From the NCBI GenBank assembly GCA_050273025.1, contig CP158635.1, forward strand, positions 21,824,001 through 21,888,000: DNA of 64,000 nucleotides, written 5' to 3'. The notes beneath the pieces are model-generated. The model was given only the letters and a program-made list of their open reading frames with translations. It was not told the origin of the DNA and made no database searches. The translations under genes were made by a program, and so were the position numbers. This DNA comes from Cenococcum geophilum (Eukaryota). Shown here one piece after another: positions 11,726 to 25,221 of the stretch; the first letter of the stretch is position 1, and every line of letters begins with the position of its first letter.

Positions 11726-14700
11726 ATGGCCGAAATTGCCGCAGCAGCCACTATCATTCAACTTGTCCAGTTCAGCGGGACTGTCCTCTCAAGTTGTTAC
11801 GACTATATTAGGAAGGCCAAGAATGCTCCTGGTGATATACAGAACGTCATCAATGATATCAGCGGGCTTGAGGGCATCCTCAAGCGCCTACAATCGCTCA
11901 CCTCAGATCCTGAAGATGAACGTCATGCTCTATTAAAGTCTCTTGAGGGGCCAAATGGTGCTTTTCAAGCATCCTCCCAGGCGTTGAAGGAACTGCAGAA
12001 GAGGCTGAAATCACTTACTGAAGCTTCCAATGCTCGGAGGAGACTGACGTGGCCCCTTGAACAAAGCAAAATTGCCGAAATCTTGAACAAGTTAGGGGAA
12101 CAGAAACAGACATTCCTTTTCGCTCTCGTTGGAGATCACGCCTTCTCGGACGATGCAAATGCGGCTGAAGTTGGCAAAGTCAAGATAATGTTGGAGGATA
12201 TGAAGGTCACTGAGCAGCGGAATAAGGTTATCGGTTGGTTAAGAGGAGCTGATCCTTCCACCAACTACAACGCTGCGCGTAAGAAGCACGAAAGTGGTAC
12301 TAGTGATTGGCTACTTCATTCAGAACAATTTCAATCTTGGGAGGTAGGAGACGGCCAATTTATGTGGCTTTACGGGATACCTGGAGCGGGAAAGACGATA
12401 TTAAGGTCCGTTTCCCTGTCGCAGCCCAAGGCACCAGGACGAGTCTAATTTCTATCAAGCTCAACGGTGATCCGTCACCTTACCGCTCAATATGATAAGC
12501 GTCCAGGCTGCCGTGTCGCCTATTACTACTTCGACTTCAATGACCCCAGAAAGCAAACCGTCACCGGCTGTCTGAAGTCTCTTGTTCAACAGCTCTGCGC
12601 GCAGTCGGATAGCGTTCCCGAACCTTTATTGTCGCTCTACGAAGAGTGTAAAGGGAGTGATCCTAGCTCTGCACAGCTGACTGATGCGTTGACATCCATG
12701 CTGAGTACCTCATCAAGAGATTTCATCGTCATTGATGCTCTGGATGAATGTAAAGAAGAGGAAGGGGAACGAGAGCGAGAGGCCTTTTTCGAAGCTTTGG
12801 CTAGTATCAAAACGTTGGCAACGGGGTCTTACTGCATCTTCGTTACGAGTCGCCCGGAACTGGACATTCGACGCGAAATGATGGTACTTGGAGATATGGT
12901 CTTGGAGGTGTTAGGGACCTTAGTGAATGAAGATATCCGATTGCATGTCAAAGCGTATCTAGCGAAAGATGCCCGAATGAAAAAATGGCCAGCAAATGTG
13001 AAAGAAGAGGTTGTAGATGCTCTCACGGACAAAGCAAACGGGATGTAAGTATTTCGTAACCTGTAAAGGACAAAAGCTAATTCTGCTAAGGTTTCGATGG
13101 GCTGTATGTCAGCTAGATTCTCTCCGAACCTGTCTCAAACCAAAGCTACCAACTATAAAACAGAAACTGGATGACCTTCCAAGAACCTTGGAAGGTACCT
13201 ACGAAAGGATCTTCAAAGATATGCCACCCGATTACGAAAGGGAGATGCGAACCATTCTTATGCTTTTGGCATTCTCCACTAGGCCAATGACAATCCAGGA
13301 AGTCGCAGAGGCGACTGCTGTGGACCTCGAAGCCCAGAAGTTCTCCGTCGAGGAAAGATTTCCTGACCCTTACGATATCCTGGAGCTTTGTTCAAGTCTT
13401 GTGTCCTTGTCAGAGCCCAGCTCGGACCCAACGTCAGACTTGAAAAAAGAAAGAGGCTTTTCAAGCATCCCGTGGGCACCTGATGTCAAGATGCTCCAAT
13501 TTGCGCACTTTTCAGTCAAAGAATACATCCTTTCAGAGCGGGCCCAAAAGGCTATGGCCGCAAAATTGCATATCGAAGAGTCTGTCTGTCAGCGGCAGAT
13601 CACCGAGATGTGCTTGATATACCTGCTTGACTTTAACGGCAGTCAAAGAGCGAGCAATTTCGACCATGACGAGTTCCCTTTGCTCGCTTATTCCTCCCTA
13701 CATTGGATCACGCATATGCGCGCAGTGCCTGCGAGTGGGAGAAATTCTGTTGAAGGTCTGCTCGTCCGGTTATTCGACCCTGATCATCCCGAGAGTCTCA
13801 TGAACTTCCTCAACCTCTACGACCCTGCATCAGTCTGGAGCCTATATGACGACGGAAAGATCGTTTCGATGGGGTTTAACTTGAAACGCAACAGGCAAGA
13901 CTTCGAAACCCCCTTGTATTACGCCTGCTACTACGGACTTCTTCCCATTGCAACATGGTTACTAAAGGGCTCTGACACTGGACTAAAGAAAGAGGAACTG
14001 GGATCAGCTCTCGGTGCAGCTGCCGTTGAGGGTCATCCTGATATTGTGCAGATATTATTAAACGAAGGAGCGGATCCCAATACGCCTTACTGTGCCGTAT
14101 ACCACCGCCCTTTGCATGCGGCCGCAGAAGGCGGACATGTAAGCATAGTGAAGCTGCTTCTCGCAGTCGGCGCCGAGGTCAAAGCTCAGGATGGGGAGGG
14201 CGTCACTGCACTCCATCTTGCGGCGAAGCAAGGCAATCCTGAGGTGGTTCAGTTGCTCGTTGATGCTGGACATGAGATGGACGTCCGGGCTTTGAGAATG
14301 GGAAATCCCCTTTGTCTGGCTGCTCGGCACGCGAACAGCGAGGCTCTAGCGGCTCTGGTGCGCAACGGCGCTGACGTGAACGCATATTCTGGGCGTTACT
14401 TCTCGGCACTGACCACCGCCTGTGAACGTGGCAGCGCAGATTCTGTGAGGATCCTCCTGGATGCCGGTGCTGAAGTCAACACACTGCGTTCGTCGGAGAC
14501 CCCGCTTCACAGTGCGGCGGAACGAGCCGACCTGGAAATTATGCGCCTACTTATTGCCAGAGGTGCAGATGTTGACGGAAGTGGCGGGACGTATGGCACT
14601 CCTCTTAAGGCTTCGATCCAATCCCGCGAACCTGAGTCTTTCCAATTCATGTTGGACAGCGGCGCAGATATCAACGCGCAGGGTAGCACATCGAAATTCC

Positions 14701-17069
14701 CGGTCGATCAGGCTATCTTCGGTGGCAATCTCGCTGCAGCGGACAAACTCTTGGATTTGGGAGCGCAATTTGGTGACGATGCTCTCCTCGAGGCTTTGGA
14801 TTATCATAGCAAAGAATACCTGGCCAAGAGACTCCTGGACCTTGGGGCAAACCCAAATGCGGAACATAAGAACCAAGGCAACGTACTCCAATTTGCCGTG
14901 GTGTCGAGTTCCGAAGACGCAGTGCGATGGCTTCTCGAGGCAGGCGCAGATGTCAACGCCGTTGAAGGCGAGTATGGAACCGCACTGCAAGCTGCTTGTT
15001 ACCTAGGAAGCAAGAGCGGAGTGCATCTGCTGTTGGATTATGGAGCTCATGTCAATATGCCAGCTTGCGGCAACTATGGGAATGCTTCACAAGCCGCTGT
15101 GGAAGGGGGAAACGAGTCGGTCGTCCAGTTACTTCTCAACCGTGGCGCTGATGTCAACGCAAGAGGAGGGAGATACGAAACAGCTCTACAAGCTGCTGCT
15201 AATAGCGGAAAGAAATCTTTGGTACAACTATTTCTTGAGAAGGACGCCGATGTTAATGCTGTAGGTGGCCGGTTTGGAACAGCTCTTTGCGCAGCTCTTA
15301 CGAGCGGACACGGGGACATTGCCAGGTTACTTCTTGAACACCAAGCCGATATCGAGGAGCAAGTTTCCGCGAAGCTCGCAAAGGCCACGGAGTCGAATTC
15401 GATGGAAGAATACTCCTCCGCAATTGCAGCGGCCGCCGGGTCGGAGAAGCCGGGGCTGATTCAGCTCTTGCTGGATCATGGCGTTGAAATCAACGCGGAC
15501 GGCGAGGCATGTGCCTCTGCTCTCTGGAATGCTGCGGTCTGCTCTGACACGGCTATGCTTAAGTTCCTGATCGCAAATGGAGCAGACATAAAGAGACACG
15601 GAGGAAATGCGATCCGTGGGGCCGTGGAAAGACATCACCCGGAACACCTTGACTTGTTACTTCGGCATGGCGCTGATGTGAATTTTGTGAATAGCAATTA
15701 TTCTTCCAACATCACAAGTCCTGGTTGCGCCTTGCAGGCCAGCATTGAGCGGGGTCGATGGGATCTCATGCACACGCTGCTGGCCGCAGGCGCGGATATC
15801 AACCTACAATGTGGCCAGTGGGGCACTGCGTTGCAAGCGGCTATCGAACGCGGGTCAAAAGAGACTGCTATGGACCTTCTCGAGAGAGGAGCCGATGTGA
15901 ATGCAAAGGCTGGCTACTGGGGAACCTCCCTGATGCAAGCGGCATATAAAGGTGACGAGGACTTGTTCCACACCTTGCTGGACCGCGGTGCGGACGTCAA
16001 CATCCAGCATGGGCGCTATGGCAACGCACTCCAAGTCGCTATTACGGGGAAATACTACGATATGGCCCACGAGCTGCTGGACCGAGGCGCAAATCCAAAT
16101 GCCCAAGGGAGACATTCGACAGCCTTGATTGCAGCATGTGGATGGGGAAAGGCTGGTCAACTCGAGCTAATAAAGCGCCTTGTGCCAATGGGAACCGATC
16201 TAAACGCATTTGACCAAAAACGCCCTGAATACACAGAGTTCAGTGCGAGTACGGTGCTCTTGAACCCGCTCGGAGCAGCCGCTTATGCTGGAAAAGATCA
16301 TATTATTCGCTTGTTGCTCGAATTAGGAGCCGATATCAATGCCCAAGGAGGTACTTACGGTAATGTCCTGCAAGTAGCCGTCATGAGCAGGCAGAACGTA
16401 GTAGTGAAACTATTGGTGGACGAAGGAGCTAATGTCAACGCTGTGGGAGGCGATTATTACACAGCTCTGCAAGCGGCGGCAGTCCAATACTCCGGTGCTC
16501 TCATCAATATGCTCCTTGAAGCTGGTGCCGACGTCAACATTGAAGGAGGATATCACGGTTCTCCGCTCCAAGCGTCCTCAAGCACAGGCGTTATGCGTCA
16601 CGTCCAGCTATTTCTCACCCGGGGCGCCAAGGTCAACACGAGTGTCGGTAAATACGGTAGCCCCCTCCAAGCCGCCGTGAAGGGAGGAAATCTGGAAACC
16701 GCCAGGCTTCTCCTGGAGAATGGTGCGGACGTGGATTTACCAGGTGGGAAATATGGCTTCCCCCTGCAAGCTGCGGCATGCGACACGACCATGGACCGGA
16801 TCAGTTCGAATGATGGTTCCAAGACCCTAGAGCTGTTGTTGGAGAAAGGTGCGGATGTCAACGCACAAGGTGGTAAGTACGGTACGGCTTTGCAGGCCGC
16901 GGCTTACCATAACCCAAAATTCGTTGAAATCCTGCTGGAACACGGAGCAGATCCGAATGCGTCGGGTGGAAAGTTTGGAAGTCCTCTTAAGGCTGCGAGG
17001 AAGAAGGGACTGAGCAGGGCTGCGAACGCATTACTGCAGAACGGTGCTAAGGATGAAATATGCGAGTAG
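11726..17069 (+). CDS. Fungal NLR-like STAND protein: HeLo-like/SesA-type N-terminus, NACHT, >20 ankyrin repeats; introns 12406-12459 and 13045-13090
   Basis: Walker A GIPGAGKTILSS, Walker B FIVIDALDEC, IFVTSR, KANGMFRWAVCQLDSL, FAHFSVKEY, then many GADVNAxGGxYGTALQAA repeats. Both introns restore the frame. Confidence 0.93.
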
Positions 17070-18089: not shown

Positions 18090-18836
18090 ATGGCCTGCCC
18101 TCTCTCTCCTCTAGAGAACCTCCCCTCAGAGCTTCTCTAGCAGACATTCTCCCTGGCTATGAGCGTTCAGCTTCCACGTAGCGGTCCCGCGATCGCCGCG
18201 AAGCTAACCTCTGAGCACATCTTCTAGAAATACAGCACGCAGGTCCTATTCCCCGCGGAAAAGCAAAACACCCGAAGAGCTCCTCTAGCCGGCGAAAAGC
18301 AAAACGCGCAACTCCATCCGCGGCATCCTCAAAAGCTCCAAAGCCCCCTCGCAACATTCGCGAGCGCGCCCTCTCCCCCCCACCCCCCGCCTACGACCTC
18401 CTCAACACCCGTCTCCTCACCTGGCCACGCTTCAAAGCCAGCATCGAAGCCGGCCTGTGCCCCGCGGCCGCAGGAAAAAAAAGCCCCCAGGTGCATCCGC
18501 CGTCGCCGTCTTCCTCAACGACCCGGCCTAGCCACCATACCCGCCTCGCCCTGCGCAGAAATCCGCACCACCATCTTCGCGTACCTCTCGCACCTCCGCG
18601 CCTGCACCCTCCCGCGCAAGCTGCTCCGTGCCCTCCCCCTGGACCCCGGACTTGACGCGCTTCCTCTCCTTCCTCACCTGCCTCGGCCTGCGCGCGGCTG
18701 AAGGAGGCGCGGTTTGGGATTGCGAGGAGGCTGAGGTGGGTTAGGGGCGGGAGGGAGGAGGCGAGATATGTGTGGGTGGAGGAGGAGGAGGAGGTGGTGG
18801 TGGTGAAGGGGTTTAGGGTTGGGAGAGATGGGTAGG
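18090..18836 (+). pseudogene. Disrupted gene with an F-box-like N-terminal motif
   Basis: MACPLSPLENLPSELL*QTFSLAMSVQLPRSGPAIAAKLTSEHIF*K. In-frame TAG stops fall where CAG(Q) would fit. GC-rich coding-like sequence continues with frameshifts; the 3' end is approximate. Confidence 0.5.
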
Positions 18837-19088
18837 CGGTTGTAGTGTGGATGCGGTCTGGTTGGTGGTGCGGTAGGGTGTGCGAGGCGATCGTCGGGTT
18901 TTGTGACTTAAGAGTCGGGATAGCCTTATGTTATACGAGAATATCTATATAAGGACATGACTATACTTCTCTGTGAAACTTCTATGGCTTCGGTGGTTAA
19001 GAGATGCACTGGTTAGTCTTCTCCTTCGAAGCAGTCAGCAGAAGCTTCAGGAATAAGAATTGCATTTTTCTACGGCTTACATAAGAGA

Positions 19089-19281
19089 CTCCGCTTGGTG
19101 TAGTTGGCTTATCGTAAGTCAACTCAGCCTCGAATCAAATTCGAGTTCAAGTCTAATATTCATAGACGTTCGACTGTAATTGTATTCTTGCCATCGAAAG
19201 GTCCCTAGTTCGATTCTGGTAATACCTAGGCTTCTTTAGGAATTTCAACAAATACTAACAAGTTCAAATAGGGAGCGGAGA
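19089..19281 (+). tRNA. tRNA-Tyr-GTA: tRNA-Tyr(GTA) with three introns. Exons 19089-19113, 19166-19179, 19193-19218, 19272-19281; spliceosomal-type introns 19114-19165 and 19219-19271; canonical 37/38 intron 19180-19192
   Basis: Joined exons give 75 nt: acceptor CTCCGCT/AGCGGAG plus A73 (C1:G72, A73 eukaryotic Tyr identity), D-stem GTG/CAC, anticodon stem TTCGA/TCGAA with loop CT-GTA-AA, variable loop AGGTC, T-arm CCTAG-TTCGATT-CTGGG. Confidence 0.92.
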
Positions 19282-19293
19282 CAAATGACCACA

Positions 19294-19299
19294 TTTTTT
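19294..19299 (+). terminator. RNA polymerase III oligo-T terminator of the tRNA-Tyr gene
   Basis: T6 run 12 nt after the discriminator base, with a second T run shortly after. Confidence 0.8.
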
Positions 19300-19892
19300 G
19301 TGGTGTTATTTTTTGTTACTAGCCGAGTGGATGATCATTAGCGAATCTTAGCTAAGCAGGATATACACATCTCCGAAATCTAGCGAGGCGCAATCTCATC
19401 TAGCGATCAACCAATAAGTGACCTGCCAATTAAGCAATGGAGGGATCTAAGATGGAAACTCGATATGAGACGCAGTGCAGTGCAGTACCATTCTTGTTGA
19501 AGCGTGGTATGTTGGAAAGGTTCGTTATGGCACAGCACTGTATTTTGATGATCAATTAGACACAACCAACACATACTCCAGCAGGCAATATTGTGGGTCA
19601 ATATTGCAATTAGTTCAACTCATAAATTGATATCATCATGGCTCTAAAGCGGAAATGCAGTTCTCTATTTCTACGCCCAGAAATATATTAGAGCACGTGT
19701 ATTCCCCCATAACATGACCAGTCCATCCACACCCAAGAAGTAGCGAAGGCCCAAATGCACCAGCTCTAGATGGGGATCAGCGACAACTCCAGCAACCAGC
19801 GGCAACATCATTTTACCCTAACCCGTCTCGACATGACTTAGACAGAAAAGGGACTCATGAACAAGAGAACGTACGCGCAATATAATACAAAC

Positions 19893-21853
19893 TTAACCGC
19901 TGAACTCCTTGATGTCAATCTGCTTGCCTGAGAGAGCAAGCGGCACGATGCCGCTGACGTGCATCTCTGGGCCATACACGTGCATGTTGAGTCCGAGCTC
20001 CTGACCTACGCTCTTGATGTTCTTGAGACCTTCCTGGTAGTTGGGGCCTGCACGACGGATCCAGATCTGGACGTTGTGCTCGTTGAGGATGGGAGCGACC
20101 TCACGCAGAGCGCGGATGACACCTTTGAATGTGGAGGCAACCTGTGCGATGTCAGCAGGCATTCATCCAAAAAGTTATATAGTTGTAAGACTTACGTTGG
20201 TGAAGTTGGCAATACCACCACCGATGAAGAGAACCTTGCCTTCAGGGTGGATCGGGGCCCGAAGCATGAGGTCAAGGACAGTGCGAGCGTAGTGGAAGGT
20301 CTGAGTCTCACTGGGCGCACCGGAGTATTCACCGTAGTTGGCGAGCTCGCTGGCGAATCCGGCGGAGGCGATAGCATCGGCGTACACGACGGAAGCACCA
20401 CCACCAGCAACGAGAGTCCACACGCGACCGGTGGCATTGAGAATGGTAAGCTTGAGGGAAGCACCAGTCTTAGCATCCATCTCGGCGATGTATGCCTCTT
20501 CCTTGCTCATCTCACGACCGAAAGGAGCGGGGAACTCCATTGGTGGGCCGGCGTCGATGGTGACCTTGGTGTCCTTAGAGGCAAGCTGAGGCAGGCCGAG
20601 GGCGGTTGCACTGCGAGCGATAGCCCACTTCACACCGCACTCGAACTCGGCGGTCTGGTCAAGTTTAGCAGCAAGATCCAGGAAGTGGACTTCAGCGGAG
20701 GTGGCATCGGCGTTGGGGATAACAACGAGAGGGTTGATTTCGAGGTAGCTGGAAGAGTTATGAGCAACTGATGGTTATAAAGGTGGCAGCGGGACTTACG
20801 TGAACTGGCAGTCGACATAAACGGCATATAACCTCGAGATGAAGTCAACGAGGACATTGTGCACACCCTTGGGGACCTTCTTCAAGAGGGTCGCGGCGAT
20901 TTCCTCATTTGAAGGATATTGAGTGAGGTCGACAGGAATGAGAAGCTTCTCAGCCTTCTCATCGACATCACCAACGTCAACACCACCTTCGTGGGTGAAG
21001 AGGATCCAGTCACCCTAAAAAAGGGAATGTTAGCATGATTACGTGATAGGGCCGTTGCGAACCGAGCCTTGAAGCGATGCCGCGAAAGAGTCGCAACATA
21101 TTCTAGGGAACAAAAACGATCTGCGGCAGACAAAAGGGACCGATAATAGATAATAAGCAATGCAAAGCACGAGACATGTCTGGGTGGCTGTAGGTGTGTG
21201 CTCTGTGATGGGTCTGGATAACTTTTCCCTTCGCCCGTGGGAAACAAAACCCTGGTGAACTCCCGCCGCCGCGAAGCCTGCTTTACGCCAGCCTCCAAAA
21301 CTTCACAGCACTATTTCTCCAACCAATACAACAAATAATTGTCTGTTTTGCGAAGCCAAAATGGAAATGGTTGCAATTCGAAGAAAATGCGGAAATGAGT
21401 ATTTCGACATACCTCTCGCACCGAGTTAATGTTGATGTAATATTCGGTATCCTGAGAGTGCGGCACGAATGGCTCGACCAAGAACTGCCTTAGGACACCC
21501 TCGACAGTCTCGACCTTTTGAACCTTTCCTGCTCTCGCCTCGATCCACTCGCGTGCCTCTGGCCATGTCTTGTTCAAAGCAAGAAGACCGCTCTTGCCTC
21601 GCCTCTTGATCAATTGATCGGGCTTTGCGACGAACTTCGAGTCTTTGGTGAGCAACCACGGATATGTGGCCTCGGCCTGGTCTAGGACGTCCTTGACGGC
21701 GGCATCCGCGGGGAAGTGCAGAGATGCGAGTCTAGGAGCTGGGTTGTGTGTGGCAGAGGGAGGGAGAGGAGTGGGCTTGATGACGGGAGCGCGTGTGAGG
21801 TGGTAGTTGAGGATGGCCTTGCCATCGGCTTCGAGGATGGATTTGGCAGACAT
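19893..21853 (-). CDS. acl2: ATP-citrate lyase, small (beta-like, ATP-grasp/citrate-binding) subunit; exons 21853-21413, 21014-20800, 20748-20196, 20141-19893
   Basis: [84 protein letters not shown]. Confidence 0.97.
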
Positions 21854-22968
21854 TGTGAGTGAGTTTTACTGAGGGGGAGAAATCTAGAAAGATTTGTGAG
21901 TTCTACCTTCTATCGAAAATGGGCTCGACAGCTGATGAAAAGGTAAGGCTCGAAGGGAATGGGAATATCCACAAAACAATAGTGTCTGAGAGGATTGACA
22001 GCTGCAACGATGATTGTACCCGAAGAGGACGGGAAATTATTGGACTTGGAAGGCAGGCTTATGAAAGTCCGAAGAGGCTACTCGGAGGTGCTGGTGGAAT
22101 CCCGGCCGCACATTGCAACCCGAAAAAAAAAGCGCTGAGCACTTACCTAGTCACTGTTGAACTGCAGGACTGCAGAGGGAGGGGGGAAAAGCGAAGAGAC
22201 GGTTTGGGGTGAGAAAGGCAGGGTCGGGGGGTGTCTGACAATTGAGTTTCTGGTAGTCAGGCACAGTTTAGGGATGGCACTCCAAATTGTTTTCTGGTGG
22301 GTTGACCGCAGCTTTCTTTGGGATCGCGCTAAACACCCGAAGGCCCTCACTTCGTTGGGAAAACTTGGGAAACGGACACCGAGACCTGAGCTGGACCGCA
22401 GTTTGACTGAGCTCAAAACGACGCCTCCAGTCCGGAAGGCTTTGCGCTCGACGACAAGCCGCAAAACCCAAGGTGCGACTATTTTCTACGATAAGCCCGA
22501 AGTCAGCCAGCTAGTCGTTAGGCATTTCGCAGAGTACACGGATCCCCATAATACCGCCCCGCCCCGCCCCGGCAAGTGGGAGATTATCGGCTCAACCCCA
22601 ACAACCCAACACCGAAAACCAAAAGAGTCGGACCAGAATTTCGGAGAGCGTCATCTTCATCATCCATCTCATCACAAAGCTCCACCCTTCCACTGATTTT
22701 CGAGAAGCTTTCTCTGGGACAACAAAACCCAAAAGGTCAGTTGTGCTTCCTGTTTTCTCCCCATTCTACTCCGTCCGTTTACACCGCCCCCATCACCTAC
22801 CATATTTTTTTTCTCGTATGCTCGGCTCCAATCCTCTCACGTCAGCTCAAGCTCCAGAATCCGACGAGGCTATCAAAATCCGCTGCGATCTCGATTACTG
22901 ACTAGTGTTCTAAACTCAGATAATATCACCTCTCTTTTTTACCCTGACTGTTGTCAACATCTCTCGCA
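21854..22968. promoter_or_regulatory. Divergent (bidirectional) promoter region shared by acl2 and acl1
   Basis: The two start codons are head-to-head and 1.1 kb apart. This arrangement is known for Pezizomycotina ACL genes. Confidence 0.7.
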
Positions 22969-25221
22969 ATGCCTTCCGCCGTGCCTGCCACAAACAGCGC
23001 ACCCACAACCTCTACTGAGGGCGGTCTGTCTGCAAACGACAACATTCGCCGTTTCGCAGCTCCTAGCAGGCCGCTGAGCCCCCCGGCCGAGCACACTCTC
23101 TTCCATCCAAAGACGCGATGCTTCGTCTAGTGAGCTTCCCGCCTCGAATTGAGTGGAGATAATCGGAAAAAGAGACTAATTGGAATTTTAATACAGCGGT
23201 CTCCAGCCTCGTGCTGTGCAGGGCATGCTCGATTTCGACTTCATTTGCAAGCGCAAGACGCCTTCTGTAGCTGGTATTATTTATACGTTCGGAGGTCAAT
23301 TCGTTAGCAAAATGTGCGTTTAGCCTATTGGAGCTTGCCCTATGAGATATCTCGGATTGCGCGTTACTAATCTACTTTCTGCAGGTACTGGGGGACAAGC
23401 GAGACTCTGCTGCCAGTCTACCAATCCGTGGAGAAAGCCATGGCCAAGCACTCCGACGTCGATACCGTCGTCAACTTCGCCTCGTCCCGCAGTGTGTACA
23501 GCTCCACTATGGAATTGATGGAGTTCCCCCAGATCAGGTCAATTGCCATCATTGCCGAAGGCGTTCCCGAGCGAGTAAGTTTACCTAACACATTTTACAT
23601 GTTTTCTACATATGGAAATAAAGTTTAACATGGATTTCTAGCGTGCCCGTGAAATTCTCCATGTTGCCAAGAAGAAGGGCATCACCATCATTGGCCCGGC
23701 CACCGTTGGTGGAATTAAGCCTGGCGCATTCAAGATTGGTAACACTGGTGGTATGATGGACAACATCGTTGCTTCTAAGTTGTACCGCCCTGGTTCCGTC
23801 GCATACGTCTCCAAGTCTGGTGGTATGTCCAACGAGCTTAACAACATCATCGCAAACACAACCGATGGTGTGTTGGAGGGTGTCGCCATTGGTGGTGACA
23901 GGTACCCCGGAACGACCTTCATTGACCACGTTCTCCGCTACCAGGCCGACCCCGACTGCAAGATCATCGTCCTGCTCGGTGAGGTTGGTGGTGTTGAGGA
24001 ATACCGTGTCATTGAGGCTGTTAAATCGGGTCAAGTAAACAAGCCCGTCGTCGCGTGGGCCATCGGTACTGTTGCTAGCATGCTGAAGACCGAGGTCCAA
24101 TTCGGTCACGCTGGTTCTTTCGCAAACTCTCAACTTGAGACTGCTGCGATGAAGAACAAGATGATGAAGGAAGCCGGCATCTACATCCCGGAGACATTCG
24201 AGGACATGCCCGGCATGCTGGCTCAGGTCTACCAGAAATTGGTCAAAGATGGCACCATTAAGCCTAAGGCTGAGCCTGTTGTCCCCAAGATTCCCATTGA
24301 CTACTCTTGGGCACAAGAGCTTGGTCTAATCCGGAAGCCTGCTGCTTTCATCTCTACCATCTCTGATGACCGTGGCCAAGAACTCCTCTACGCTGGTATG
24401 CCTATTTCCGATGTGTTCAAGGACAACATTGGTATTGGTGGTGTCATGTCGTTGCTTTGGTTCCGTCGTCGTCTTCCCGACTACGCCAGTCGCTTCCTAG
24501 AGATGGTCCTCATGTTGACTGCCGATCACGGTCCAGCCGTGTCTGGTGCTATGAACACTATCATCACCACGAGAGCTGGTAAGGATCTCATCAGCGCGTT
24601 GGTCAGCGGTCTTTTGACCATTGGCTCGCGGTTCGGTGGCGCTCTCGATGGCGCCGCAGAGGAGTTCACTAAGGCCTATGATAAGGGCCTGAGTCCACGT
24701 GACTTTGTGGACACGATGAGAAAGGAGAACAAGCTCAGTAAGCGTCCTTGTAAGTGCTTTGATAAATCATGTCCTAACATGTCCTAGTTCCTGGTATCGG
24801 CCACAGGGTTAAGTCACGTAACAACCCCGATCTCCGTGTGGAGCTCGTGAAGGAGTTCGTCAAGAAGAACTTCCCTAGCTGCAAGATGCTAGACTATGCG
24901 CTTGCGGTCGAGACGGTGACAACGTCCAAGAAGGACAACCTGATCTTGAATGTGGACGGATGCGTGGCAGTCTGCTTCGTTGATTTGATGCGCAACTGCG
25001 GTGCCTTCAGCGCCGAGGAGGCCGAGGACTACCTGAAGATGGGTGTGCTCAACGGTCTGTTCGTGCTCGGCAGGAGTATCGGTCTGATTGCCCATTTCCT
25101 CGACCAGAAGAGGTTGAGGACTGGTCTGTACAGGCATCCATGGGACGACATCACCTACCTGCTACCAAACCTTGGTGGCGGTGCGCCTGGAAACGAGGGC
25201 AGAGTAGAGGTCAGTTTGTAA
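22969..25221 (+). CDS. acl1: ATP-citrate lyase, large (alpha-like, CoA-binding/citryl-CoA lyase) subunit; four GT-AG introns
   Basis: [64 protein letters not shown] (phospho-His), [22 protein letters not shown]. Confidence 0.97.

Follow-up and report, generated by a model that had tools for sequence, protein, structure and literature searches.

A tRNA-Tyr gene of a filamentous ascomycete with two probable spliceosomal introns in addition to its canonical tRNA intron

Eukaryotic tRNA genes carry their introns at position 37/38 and, as described in the relevant passages of three papers, these introns are spliced without the spliceosome (PMC10275265, PMC13149111, PMC12530127). Spliceosomal introns have nevertheless been described in genes for other non-coding RNAs. 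The passages of one review that deal with them report mRNA-type introns in the U6 small nuclear RNA (snRNA) genes of Schizosaccharomyces pombe and many fungi, citing Tani and Ohshima (1989, 1991) and Canzler et al. (2016), and spliceosomal introns in U1, U2 and U5 snRNA and ribosomal RNA (rRNA) genes (PMC5855946); part of a second paper reports them in fungal U3 small nucleolar RNA (PMC5832005). Here we examine a tRNA-Tyr gene in a 64-kb window, meaning the whole stretch analysed (64,000 nucleotides of Cenococcum geophilum contig CP158635.1), in which the canonical intron is accompanied by two further inserts, referred to here as introns A and C. We consider it likely that the gene, a nuclear tRNA-Tyr(GUA) of a filamentous ascomycete, is live and has acquired two true U2-type spliceosomal introns on top of its 37/38 intron. 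The two inserts are very probably true spliceosomal introns, whose removal would depend on the spliceosome, and the gene is probably functional, its mature product presumably being used in translation.

The locus resembles U6 in that short GT–AG introns with a branch site sit in a small, structured non-coding RNA gene with internal polymerase III promoter elements, that the introns occupy several unrelated positions across lineages, with up to several in one gene, and that their signals are canonical while their sequence is otherwise unconserved. It differs in that the tRNA is not a spliceosome component, that its gene has a second, unrelated type of intron and that its internal polymerase III elements are known here from sequence alone. 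Because the host is a tRNA, outside the spliceosome, the origin proposed for U6 introns, reverse splicing into the RNA at the active site, is not directly transferable, and because a second intron type is present, two splicing systems must act on one RNA. The U1, U2, U5, rRNA and U3 cases likewise combine normal spliceosomal signals in a non-coding RNA gene with lineage-specific positions; the lists given in those parts of the two papers contain no tRNA, and most of the hosts in them are longer. The 13-nt insert of the present gene is of the canonical 37/38 kind, whereas introns A and C, found at 23/24 and 63/64, are 52–53 nt long and carry GT, branch and AG signals. An earlier note on this DNA had been aware of no such description for tRNA genes; our searches of the full-text literature, supplements excluded, likewise found none of a spliceosomal intron in a tRNA gene.

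The gene is laid out as follows.

19089–19113, plus strand: tRNA-Tyr exon 1, positions 1–23 (acceptor 5′ strand, D-stem 5′ strand, D-loop and the first two bases of the D-stem 3′ strand)
19114–19165, plus strand: intron A, 52 nt, at tRNA position 23/24 in the D-stem 3′ strand
19166–19218, plus strand: tRNA-Tyr exon 2, including the 13-nt canonical intron
19166–19179, plus strand: exon 2a, positions 24–37, with the anticodon GTA
19180–19192, plus strand: canonical tRNA intron, 13 nt, at 37/38; by position a substrate of the tRNA-splicing endonuclease (TSEN), and called as an intron by ARAGORN
19193–19218, plus strand: exon 2b, positions 38–63
19219–19271, plus strand: intron C, 53 nt, at tRNA position 63/64 in the T-stem 3′ strand
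19272–19281, plus strand: tRNA-Tyr exon 3, positions 64–73 (end of the T-stem, acceptor 3′ strand, discriminator A73)

Intron A begins with GTAAGT, has TCTAAT at 19152–19157 with the branch A 9 nt from the 3′ end, and ends in CATAG; intron C begins with GTAATA, has TACTAAC at 19253–19259 with the branch A 13 nt from the 3′ end, and ends in AATAG. All coordinates and motifs that the earlier note had assigned to these two introns match the sequence, as does the 13-nt 37/38 intron that it described, and its placement of the inserts in the D-stem (23/24) and T-stem (63/64) agrees with standard tRNA numbering. Its further claim, that removal of A and C yields a canonical tRNA-Tyr, is borne out by ARAGORN, which, once both introns are deleted by coordinates, calls tRNA-Tyr(gta) with a 13-nt intron, C1:G72 and A73. 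The exons sum to 75 nt by our own count (ARAGORN prints 76), and 20 of the 21 stem pairs are standard, the remaining U13·U22 being common to the whole family. The anticodon GTA, C1:G72 and A73 are what we take to be the tyrosine identity elements.

Neither insert can be left in place if the gene is to be recognized. On the raw 64-kb window ARAGORN reports 0 tRNAs, and Rfam at gathering thresholds gives zero matches in the whole window; deletion of intron A alone again leaves 0 ARAGORN tRNAs, and deletion of intron C alone produces a false tRNA-Met. As a control for chance, we deleted strict GT..AG candidates throughout the window one at a time, and 483 such single deletions gave 1 ARAGORN call, at the tRNA-Tyr locus. 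Deleting pairs (any GT..AG, 40–90 nt, both strands; 366,761 pairs) gave 3 calls, all at the tRNA-Tyr locus, one of them from the exact pair A and C. According to passages of the tRNAscan-SE 2.0 paper, that program seeks non-canonical introns in archaeal mode only, and the spliceosome is unmentioned in those passages (PMC8450103).

The two inserts resemble the mRNA introns of the same window, as the earlier note had stated. The introns of window genes are short, and three of them are validated by RNA:

19024–19080, minus strand: mRNA-type intron, 57 nt
20142–20195, minus strand: mRNA-type intron, 54 nt
20749–20799, minus strand: mRNA-type intron, 51 nt

These begin with GTAAGC or GTAAGT and have the branch A 9–11 nt from the 3′ end. 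Introns A and C (52 and 53 nt compared with 51–57 nt) agree with them in length, GT, branch and 3′ AG; the 5′ site of intron C, GTAATA, is without the G at position 5. Intron A also holds a modest 7-bp hairpin (fold z −2.67), and the same fold test found none in intron C or in the three mRNA introns.

A different enzymology is conceivable, in which TSEN or another protein enzyme recognizes A and C through a bulge-helix-bulge and the spliceosome is not involved. Non-canonical tRNA introns are also present in Cyanidioschyzon and in nucleomorphs. Archaea have non-canonical and multiple tRNA introns, as stated in part of the tRNAscan-SE 2.0 paper (PMC8450103), and the occurrence of such introns elsewhere, to which passages of a further paper also attest (PMC13149111), lends this alternative some plausibility. 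The introns of archaea and Cyanidioschyzon resemble those described here in that there may be several per gene, in that they occupy D-arm and T-arm sites and in that standard finders miss them; they differ in being defined by a bulge-helix-bulge and cut by an endonuclease, whereas A and C have spliceosomal signals and fit such a structure no better than chance. Introns A and C each score 5 of 8 bulge-helix-bulge pairs, which equals the null median (76% of 20,000 random placements reach at least 5), although the test is crude, given that the canonical 13-nt intron, intended as positive control, also scores 5 of 8. Moreover, all 22 introns tabulated below for this gene and its relatives start with GT, end in AG and keep a branch motif at fixed spacing, features that would be superfluous for an enzyme that reads structure. 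We therefore regard cutting through a bulge-helix-bulge as extremely improbable.

To examine splicing, RNA data from four runs were aligned to positions 18800–20900. X22 is raw stranded RNA sequencing (RNA-seq) from organism B, a relative about 96% identical to the window, with roughly 12% of the run sampled; X18 and X19, also from organism B, consist of Logan contigs, as does X1 from organism A, which is 100% identical to the window and could be the source strain itself. All are ordinary RNA-seq, and the mature tRNA-Tyr sequence is not specific to this locus. Nearly all pairs covering the minus-strand gene acl2 have their first mate on plus (for example, 487.5 versus 0 at 20646–20716); a first mate on plus therefore denotes minus-strand RNA. 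A read or contig counted as bridging a joint if it had at least 31 letters on both sides, and the joints listed are those with at least 3 reads.

Intron C is excised exactly at its GT and AG from plus-strand RNA. Contig 5 of X19 passes from 19219 into exon 3 and the trailer of this locus, with 138 letters on the shorter side of the joint; contig 4 of X18 has the same joint with 25 letters on its shorter side; record 2 of X1 joins 19217 to 19271 with 19 letters on the shorter side and zero other differences; and one X22 read pair with the first mate on minus, hence from plus-strand RNA, crosses the joint with 54 letters to either side. The aligner output for organism B gives the joint as 19219 to 19283 with eight letters between, corresponding to exon 3 followed by a 2-nt strain deletion that is also present in the related locus L048. 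The excised segment has GT..AG ends only when read on the plus strand, the minus strand having no usable signals, and the spliced molecule is therefore RNA of the tRNA strand.

Could these joints be artefacts of assembly or alignment, or come from an uninterrupted paralogue, with no splicing at the locus? The contigs combine different transcripts, including RNAs of opposite strands (contig 5 of X19 holds a minus-strand splice and a plus-strand splice together), and are therefore uninformative on abundance; of the three contig joints, two fall short of 31 letters on one side. However, the locus-specific trailer follows the joint in all three contigs as well as in the read, the joint occurs in all four runs under two organism labels, and the intron-bearing DNA of the locus is present in the window and in two orthologous loci (L014 and L048). 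We consider an artefactual origin highly improbable.

Two further X22 reads bear on a relative of the gene. They carry a 28-mer unique to one of 56 related loci, L051, which comprises that locus's version of exon 2a together with its own 12-nt canonical intron. Upstream of the 28-mer, the alignment of both follows window exon 1 as far as 19113, and in L051 no more than nine bases lie between the 28-mer and the D-loop intron. As judged from the 28-mer and the alignment rather than from the reads themselves, they probably stem from L051 RNA from which the D-loop intron is gone and in which the tRNA intron is still present.

Contig 3 of X18 ends exactly at 19113, the last base of exon 1, and contig 4 of X18 and record 2 of X1 start at 19195 and 19199, a few bases past the canonical intron; these ends may be branch points of the assembly graph at exon borders, and they carry no weight in our argument. 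Molecule ends in X22 pile up at two positions, with 6 at 19218, where exon 2 ends, and 7 at 19258, which is the branch A of TACTAAC. The strand label of both groups is minus, the wrong one for a splicing intermediate, and the pile-up at 19258 is probably an alignment clip ahead of a strain difference at 19259.

We identified relatives of the gene in one metagenome scan, using exon 2 as the pattern and requiring positions 27–61 to be intact, so that inserts there are undetectable. The scan yielded 56 loci with 57 genes. Four loci that belong to another tRNA-Tyr family (L004, L043, L045 and L056) and one cut by a contig end (L012) were left out, leaving 52 assessable genes, and among these are both of the things for which the earlier note had proposed looking: 35 copies that are uninterrupted save for the 37/38 intron, and 17 genes with one or two GT..AG inserts. 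The 37/38 introns of the relatives measure 11–30 nt. ARAGORN in intron mode made no call for 6 of the 17 interrupted genes; in 10 it assigned the wrong isotype and a false long intron, and in 1 it called Tyr with a wrong intron. All 17 are thus missed or mislabelled, which, together with the blank results of ARAGORN and Rfam at the window locus, upholds the expectation that standard finders would miss such genes. ARAGORN puts the canonical intron in the wrong place, labelling the uninterrupted L011 as Asn, for instance; its isotype labels for the spliced relatives are thus unreliable, and we therefore defined the introns of the relatives by restoration of the conserved 27-nt 5′ part and of 7/7 acceptor pairs. 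Exactly one GT..AG removal achieves this in 16 of the 17 interrupted genes. Inserts occur at six positions across the family (16/17, 20/20a, 20a/20b, 23/24, 61/62 and 63/64), distributed over the loci as follows.

L014, L048: 23/24 and 63/64; orthologues of the window locus with both introns A and C
L001, L015, L035, L010, L030, L052: 20a/20b; D-loop intron
L018, L031, L019, L025, L032, L037: 20/20a; D-loop intron one base earlier
L017, L051: 16/17 and 61/62; two introns
L034: 63/64; one intron

Excluding L052, the window and 16 loci contribute 22 introns to our table. They are 47–68 nt long, begin with GTAAGT, GTACGT, GTATGT, GTCAGT, GTGTGT or GTAATA, end in AG and have a motif of the CTAAC, CTAAT, TTAAC or CTGAC type with the branch A 9–13 nt from the 3′ end. 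The two orthologues, L014 and L048, retain both introns with their GT, branch and AG signals, so that the signals are conserved at orthologous loci. Each of the two assemblies that hold this locus yielded exactly two tRNA-Tyr genes that match the pattern (L014 and L017; L048 and L051), and all four are interrupted; organism B has both L048-type and L051-type loci.

Between the window and L048, the exons differ at 1 of 75 positions (a D-loop base) and the canonical intron at 0 of 13; intron A has 1 substitution and 1 indel (a 2-nt insertion found in both L014 and L048), and intron C has 2 substitutions, one of which changes TACTAAC to TACTAAT, making 3 substitutions and 1 indel in 107 nt for the two introns together. 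The flanks have diverged further, with 5 substitutions and 3 gaps in 75 nt on the 5′ side and 6 substitutions and 3 gaps in 60 nt on the 3′ side. L017 and L051 have identical exons (0/75) and a first intron with 5 substitutions, 3 gaps and a 3′ end changed from CTAG to GCAG; L018 and L019 also have 0/75 exon differences, with 18 substitutions in a 54-nt intron. Over five close pairs (four orthologue pairs plus L018/L019), exons differ at 0–1 of 75 positions while introns or flanks have diverged. After in-silico splicing, all 17 genes (the window and 16 loci) are 75 nt long with 20 of 21 stem pairs standard and a single family-wide U·U. Eight columns vary among them, of which six form three covarying pairs (5:68, 31:39 and 52:62) and two lie in the D-loop. 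The two groups of D-loop introns differ by a shift of 1 nt with an identical spliced product, which makes sense only if the product matters. These patterns point to purifying selection on the mature tRNA-Tyr sequence.

Some of the relatives lie close to a tRNA-Trp gene. On four distinct contigs (L005, L012, L018 and L032/L037), tRNA-Tyr is followed on the same strand by tRNA-Trp at 300–480 nt. In L018, where tRNA-Trp(CCA) lies some 300 nt downstream of an interrupted tRNA-Tyr, a 52-nt GTAAGT..TTCTAAC..CTAG insert (minus strand, 1335–1386) also interrupts tRNA-Trp, in its T-loop, and ARAGORN matches this tRNA only after in-silico removal of the insert; the syntenic tRNA-Trp genes of L005, L012 and L032 are uninterrupted at that T-loop site. 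Among these pairs, tRNA-Tyr is interrupted in L018 and L032 and uninterrupted in L005 and L012. These are cases of intron presence and absence at loci that look orthologous. Interrupted and uninterrupted tRNA-Tyr genes alike (for example, L007, L011, L020, L022, L039, L001, L018 and L030) have in common a leader 30–100 nt upstream, in which a CATCA-like and a CAAGC motif occur together with a short hairpin immediately ahead of the tRNA; a TATA-like box often lies farther upstream. The shared sequence may be a lineage-specific upstream promoter or leader element.

The A-box region of the window's tRNA-Tyr gene (approximately 19096–19107) lies in exon 1 and its B-box/T-loop region (approximately 19208–19216) in exon 2b; both are thus inside exons, about 100 nt apart. 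Around them we found an antisense transcript and the following elements.

18946–18951, unstranded: palindromic TATA-like element, 143 nt upstream of the tRNA start
19024–19080, minus strand: 57-nt GT–AG intron of the antisense transcript, with joints in X1, X18 and X19 and in 20 X22 reads
19065–19069, plus strand: T5 run, 20 nt upstream of the tRNA, which would limit a polymerase III leader to less than 20 nt
about 19081–19289 (5′ end approximate), minus strand: first exon of the antisense transcript, spanning the whole tRNA gene; X22 depth 12–45, with record 1 of X1 reaching 19289
19294–19299 and 19309–19314, plus strand: two T6 runs, 13 and 28 nt past the tRNA end, resembling polymerase III terminators

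A downstream T-run is kept by all interrupted relatives. Runs of at least four T occur in 0 of 18 distinct introns scored, compared with 3.1 expected from shuffles (P ~ 0.03), which is only suggestive of T-run avoidance in introns, given that the samples are related and that L052, which has TTTT in its intron, was left out. In X22, the dominant RNA over 18800–19296 is minus-strand (depth 12–70 versus 0.2–2.5), and the antisense transcript is 10–30 times more abundant than RNA of the tRNA strand. Its longest Met-started open reading frame is 66 amino acids, with no Pfam match nearby. Plus-strand depth of 1–6 continues to about 19580 in X22, and plus-strand reads also cover the leader upstream of the T5 run. 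The TATA-like element is a speculative candidate for part of the promoter of a longer plus-strand transcript. The box regions and T-runs fit polymerase III, as in the U6 gene of S. pombe; since every spliced molecule observed passes the T-runs, read-through or a polymerase II precursor is just as open.

We acknowledge that a number of observations weigh against a live, twice-interrupted gene. Under the 31-letter rule, intron C is bridged only in X19 and in the single X22 read. Of the two splice junctions that the earlier note had proposed to look for in RNA, one was found: the intron C junction is seen in contigs of X19, X18 and X1 and in one X22 read, and the joint from 19113 to 19166 that would mark removal of intron A is not listed in any of the four runs, contig 5 of X19 and record 1 of X1 running through A. 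This last negative is weak: over intron A the depth of the tRNA strand is about 2, compared with 37–45 for the dominant antisense RNA, and a joint needed at least 3 reads to be listed. The spliced X22 read goes on for at least 54 nt after 19283 and so passes both T6 runs, and contigs reach the 3′ region of acl2; a spliced read that passes the T6 runs need not derive from a molecule that yields tRNA. Such libraries would not capture short polymerase III products, however, and read-through of the T-runs therefore does not exclude them. Other assemblies mix interrupted and uninterrupted copies with related trailers, an uninterrupted tRNA-Tyr copy may also exist in this organism beyond the 64 kb analysed, and conservation of the exons could be kept by gene conversion from intact paralogues. 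Finally, L052 regains its 5′ part on intron removal but has a C5·A68 mismatch and TTTT in its intron; copies of this type may be decaying, and it was left out of the tables.

Taken together, such observations could describe a relic: a tRNA-Tyr gene hit by two intron insertions that no longer supplies tRNA, in which splicing is incidental to low-level polymerase II or read-through RNA while other genes make tRNA-Tyr. The passage of spliced RNA through the T-runs at a tRNA-strand depth of about 2, the failure to see intron A spliced, the use of the same DNA by an antisense transcript and the stem mismatch of L052 all accord with it. A relic would not be expected to show what the family shows, namely stem-breaking changes in none of the 17 scored genes, with every stem difference compensated; near-identical exons beside diverging introns or flanks; splice signals and branch spacing retained in every copy; an intron that shifts by 1 nt and leaves the product unchanged; and interruption of both tRNA-Tyr genes recovered from each of the two assemblies that hold the locus. 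We judge the relic distinctly unlikely and favour a live gene with two spliceosomal introns.

Under the favoured reading, a precursor would be transcribed from the tRNA-Tyr gene and the spliceosome would take out introns A and C in the nucleus, leaving an ordinary intron-containing pre-tRNA-Tyr. TSEN and ligase would then remove the 13-nt intron, and the ends would be trimmed as usual. We infer the excision of intron A and the order of these steps. A bolder version, which we think doubtful, holds that every tRNA-Tyr gene here is interrupted, so that translation of Tyr codons would be spliceosome-dependent; that the precursors are at least partly long, ignore T-runs in the manner of polymerase II and are spliced like mRNA before the tRNA is carved out; and that several tRNA families of some ascomycete lineages have come to use this second biogenesis route, a further interrupted gene being the tRNA-Trp of L018.

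If the favoured reading is true, a tRNA that needs both machines breaks the separation of tRNA splicing from the spliceosome and ties tRNA supply to splicing capacity. Small structured RNA genes subject to the spliceosome would then comprise two kinds, fungal U6 and now tRNA. Because finders miss or mislabel all of the interrupted relatives, the tRNA sets of such fungi are under-counted and mis-typed. A small and invariant host gene also offers clean cases for tests of intron origin, among them syntenic presence and absence, the 1-nt shift with the same product and independent insertions at six or more sites. As to where the introns came from, A and C resemble only those of their orthologues among the other tRNA-Tyr introns, and no copies of either occur elsewhere in the 64-kb window, so that an introner-like element is unsupported, although 64 kb is little.

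The neighbours of the tRNA-Tyr gene are two divergent ATP-citrate lyase subunit genes, at 19893–21865 on the minus strand and 23371–25221 on the plus strand. Elsewhere in the window, a very large ankyrin-repeat gene on the plus strand (13017–17069) has a 1350-amino-acid open frame with 15 Ank_2 stretches, and the frame that precedes it, from 12449 on the same strand, looks like part of the same gene.

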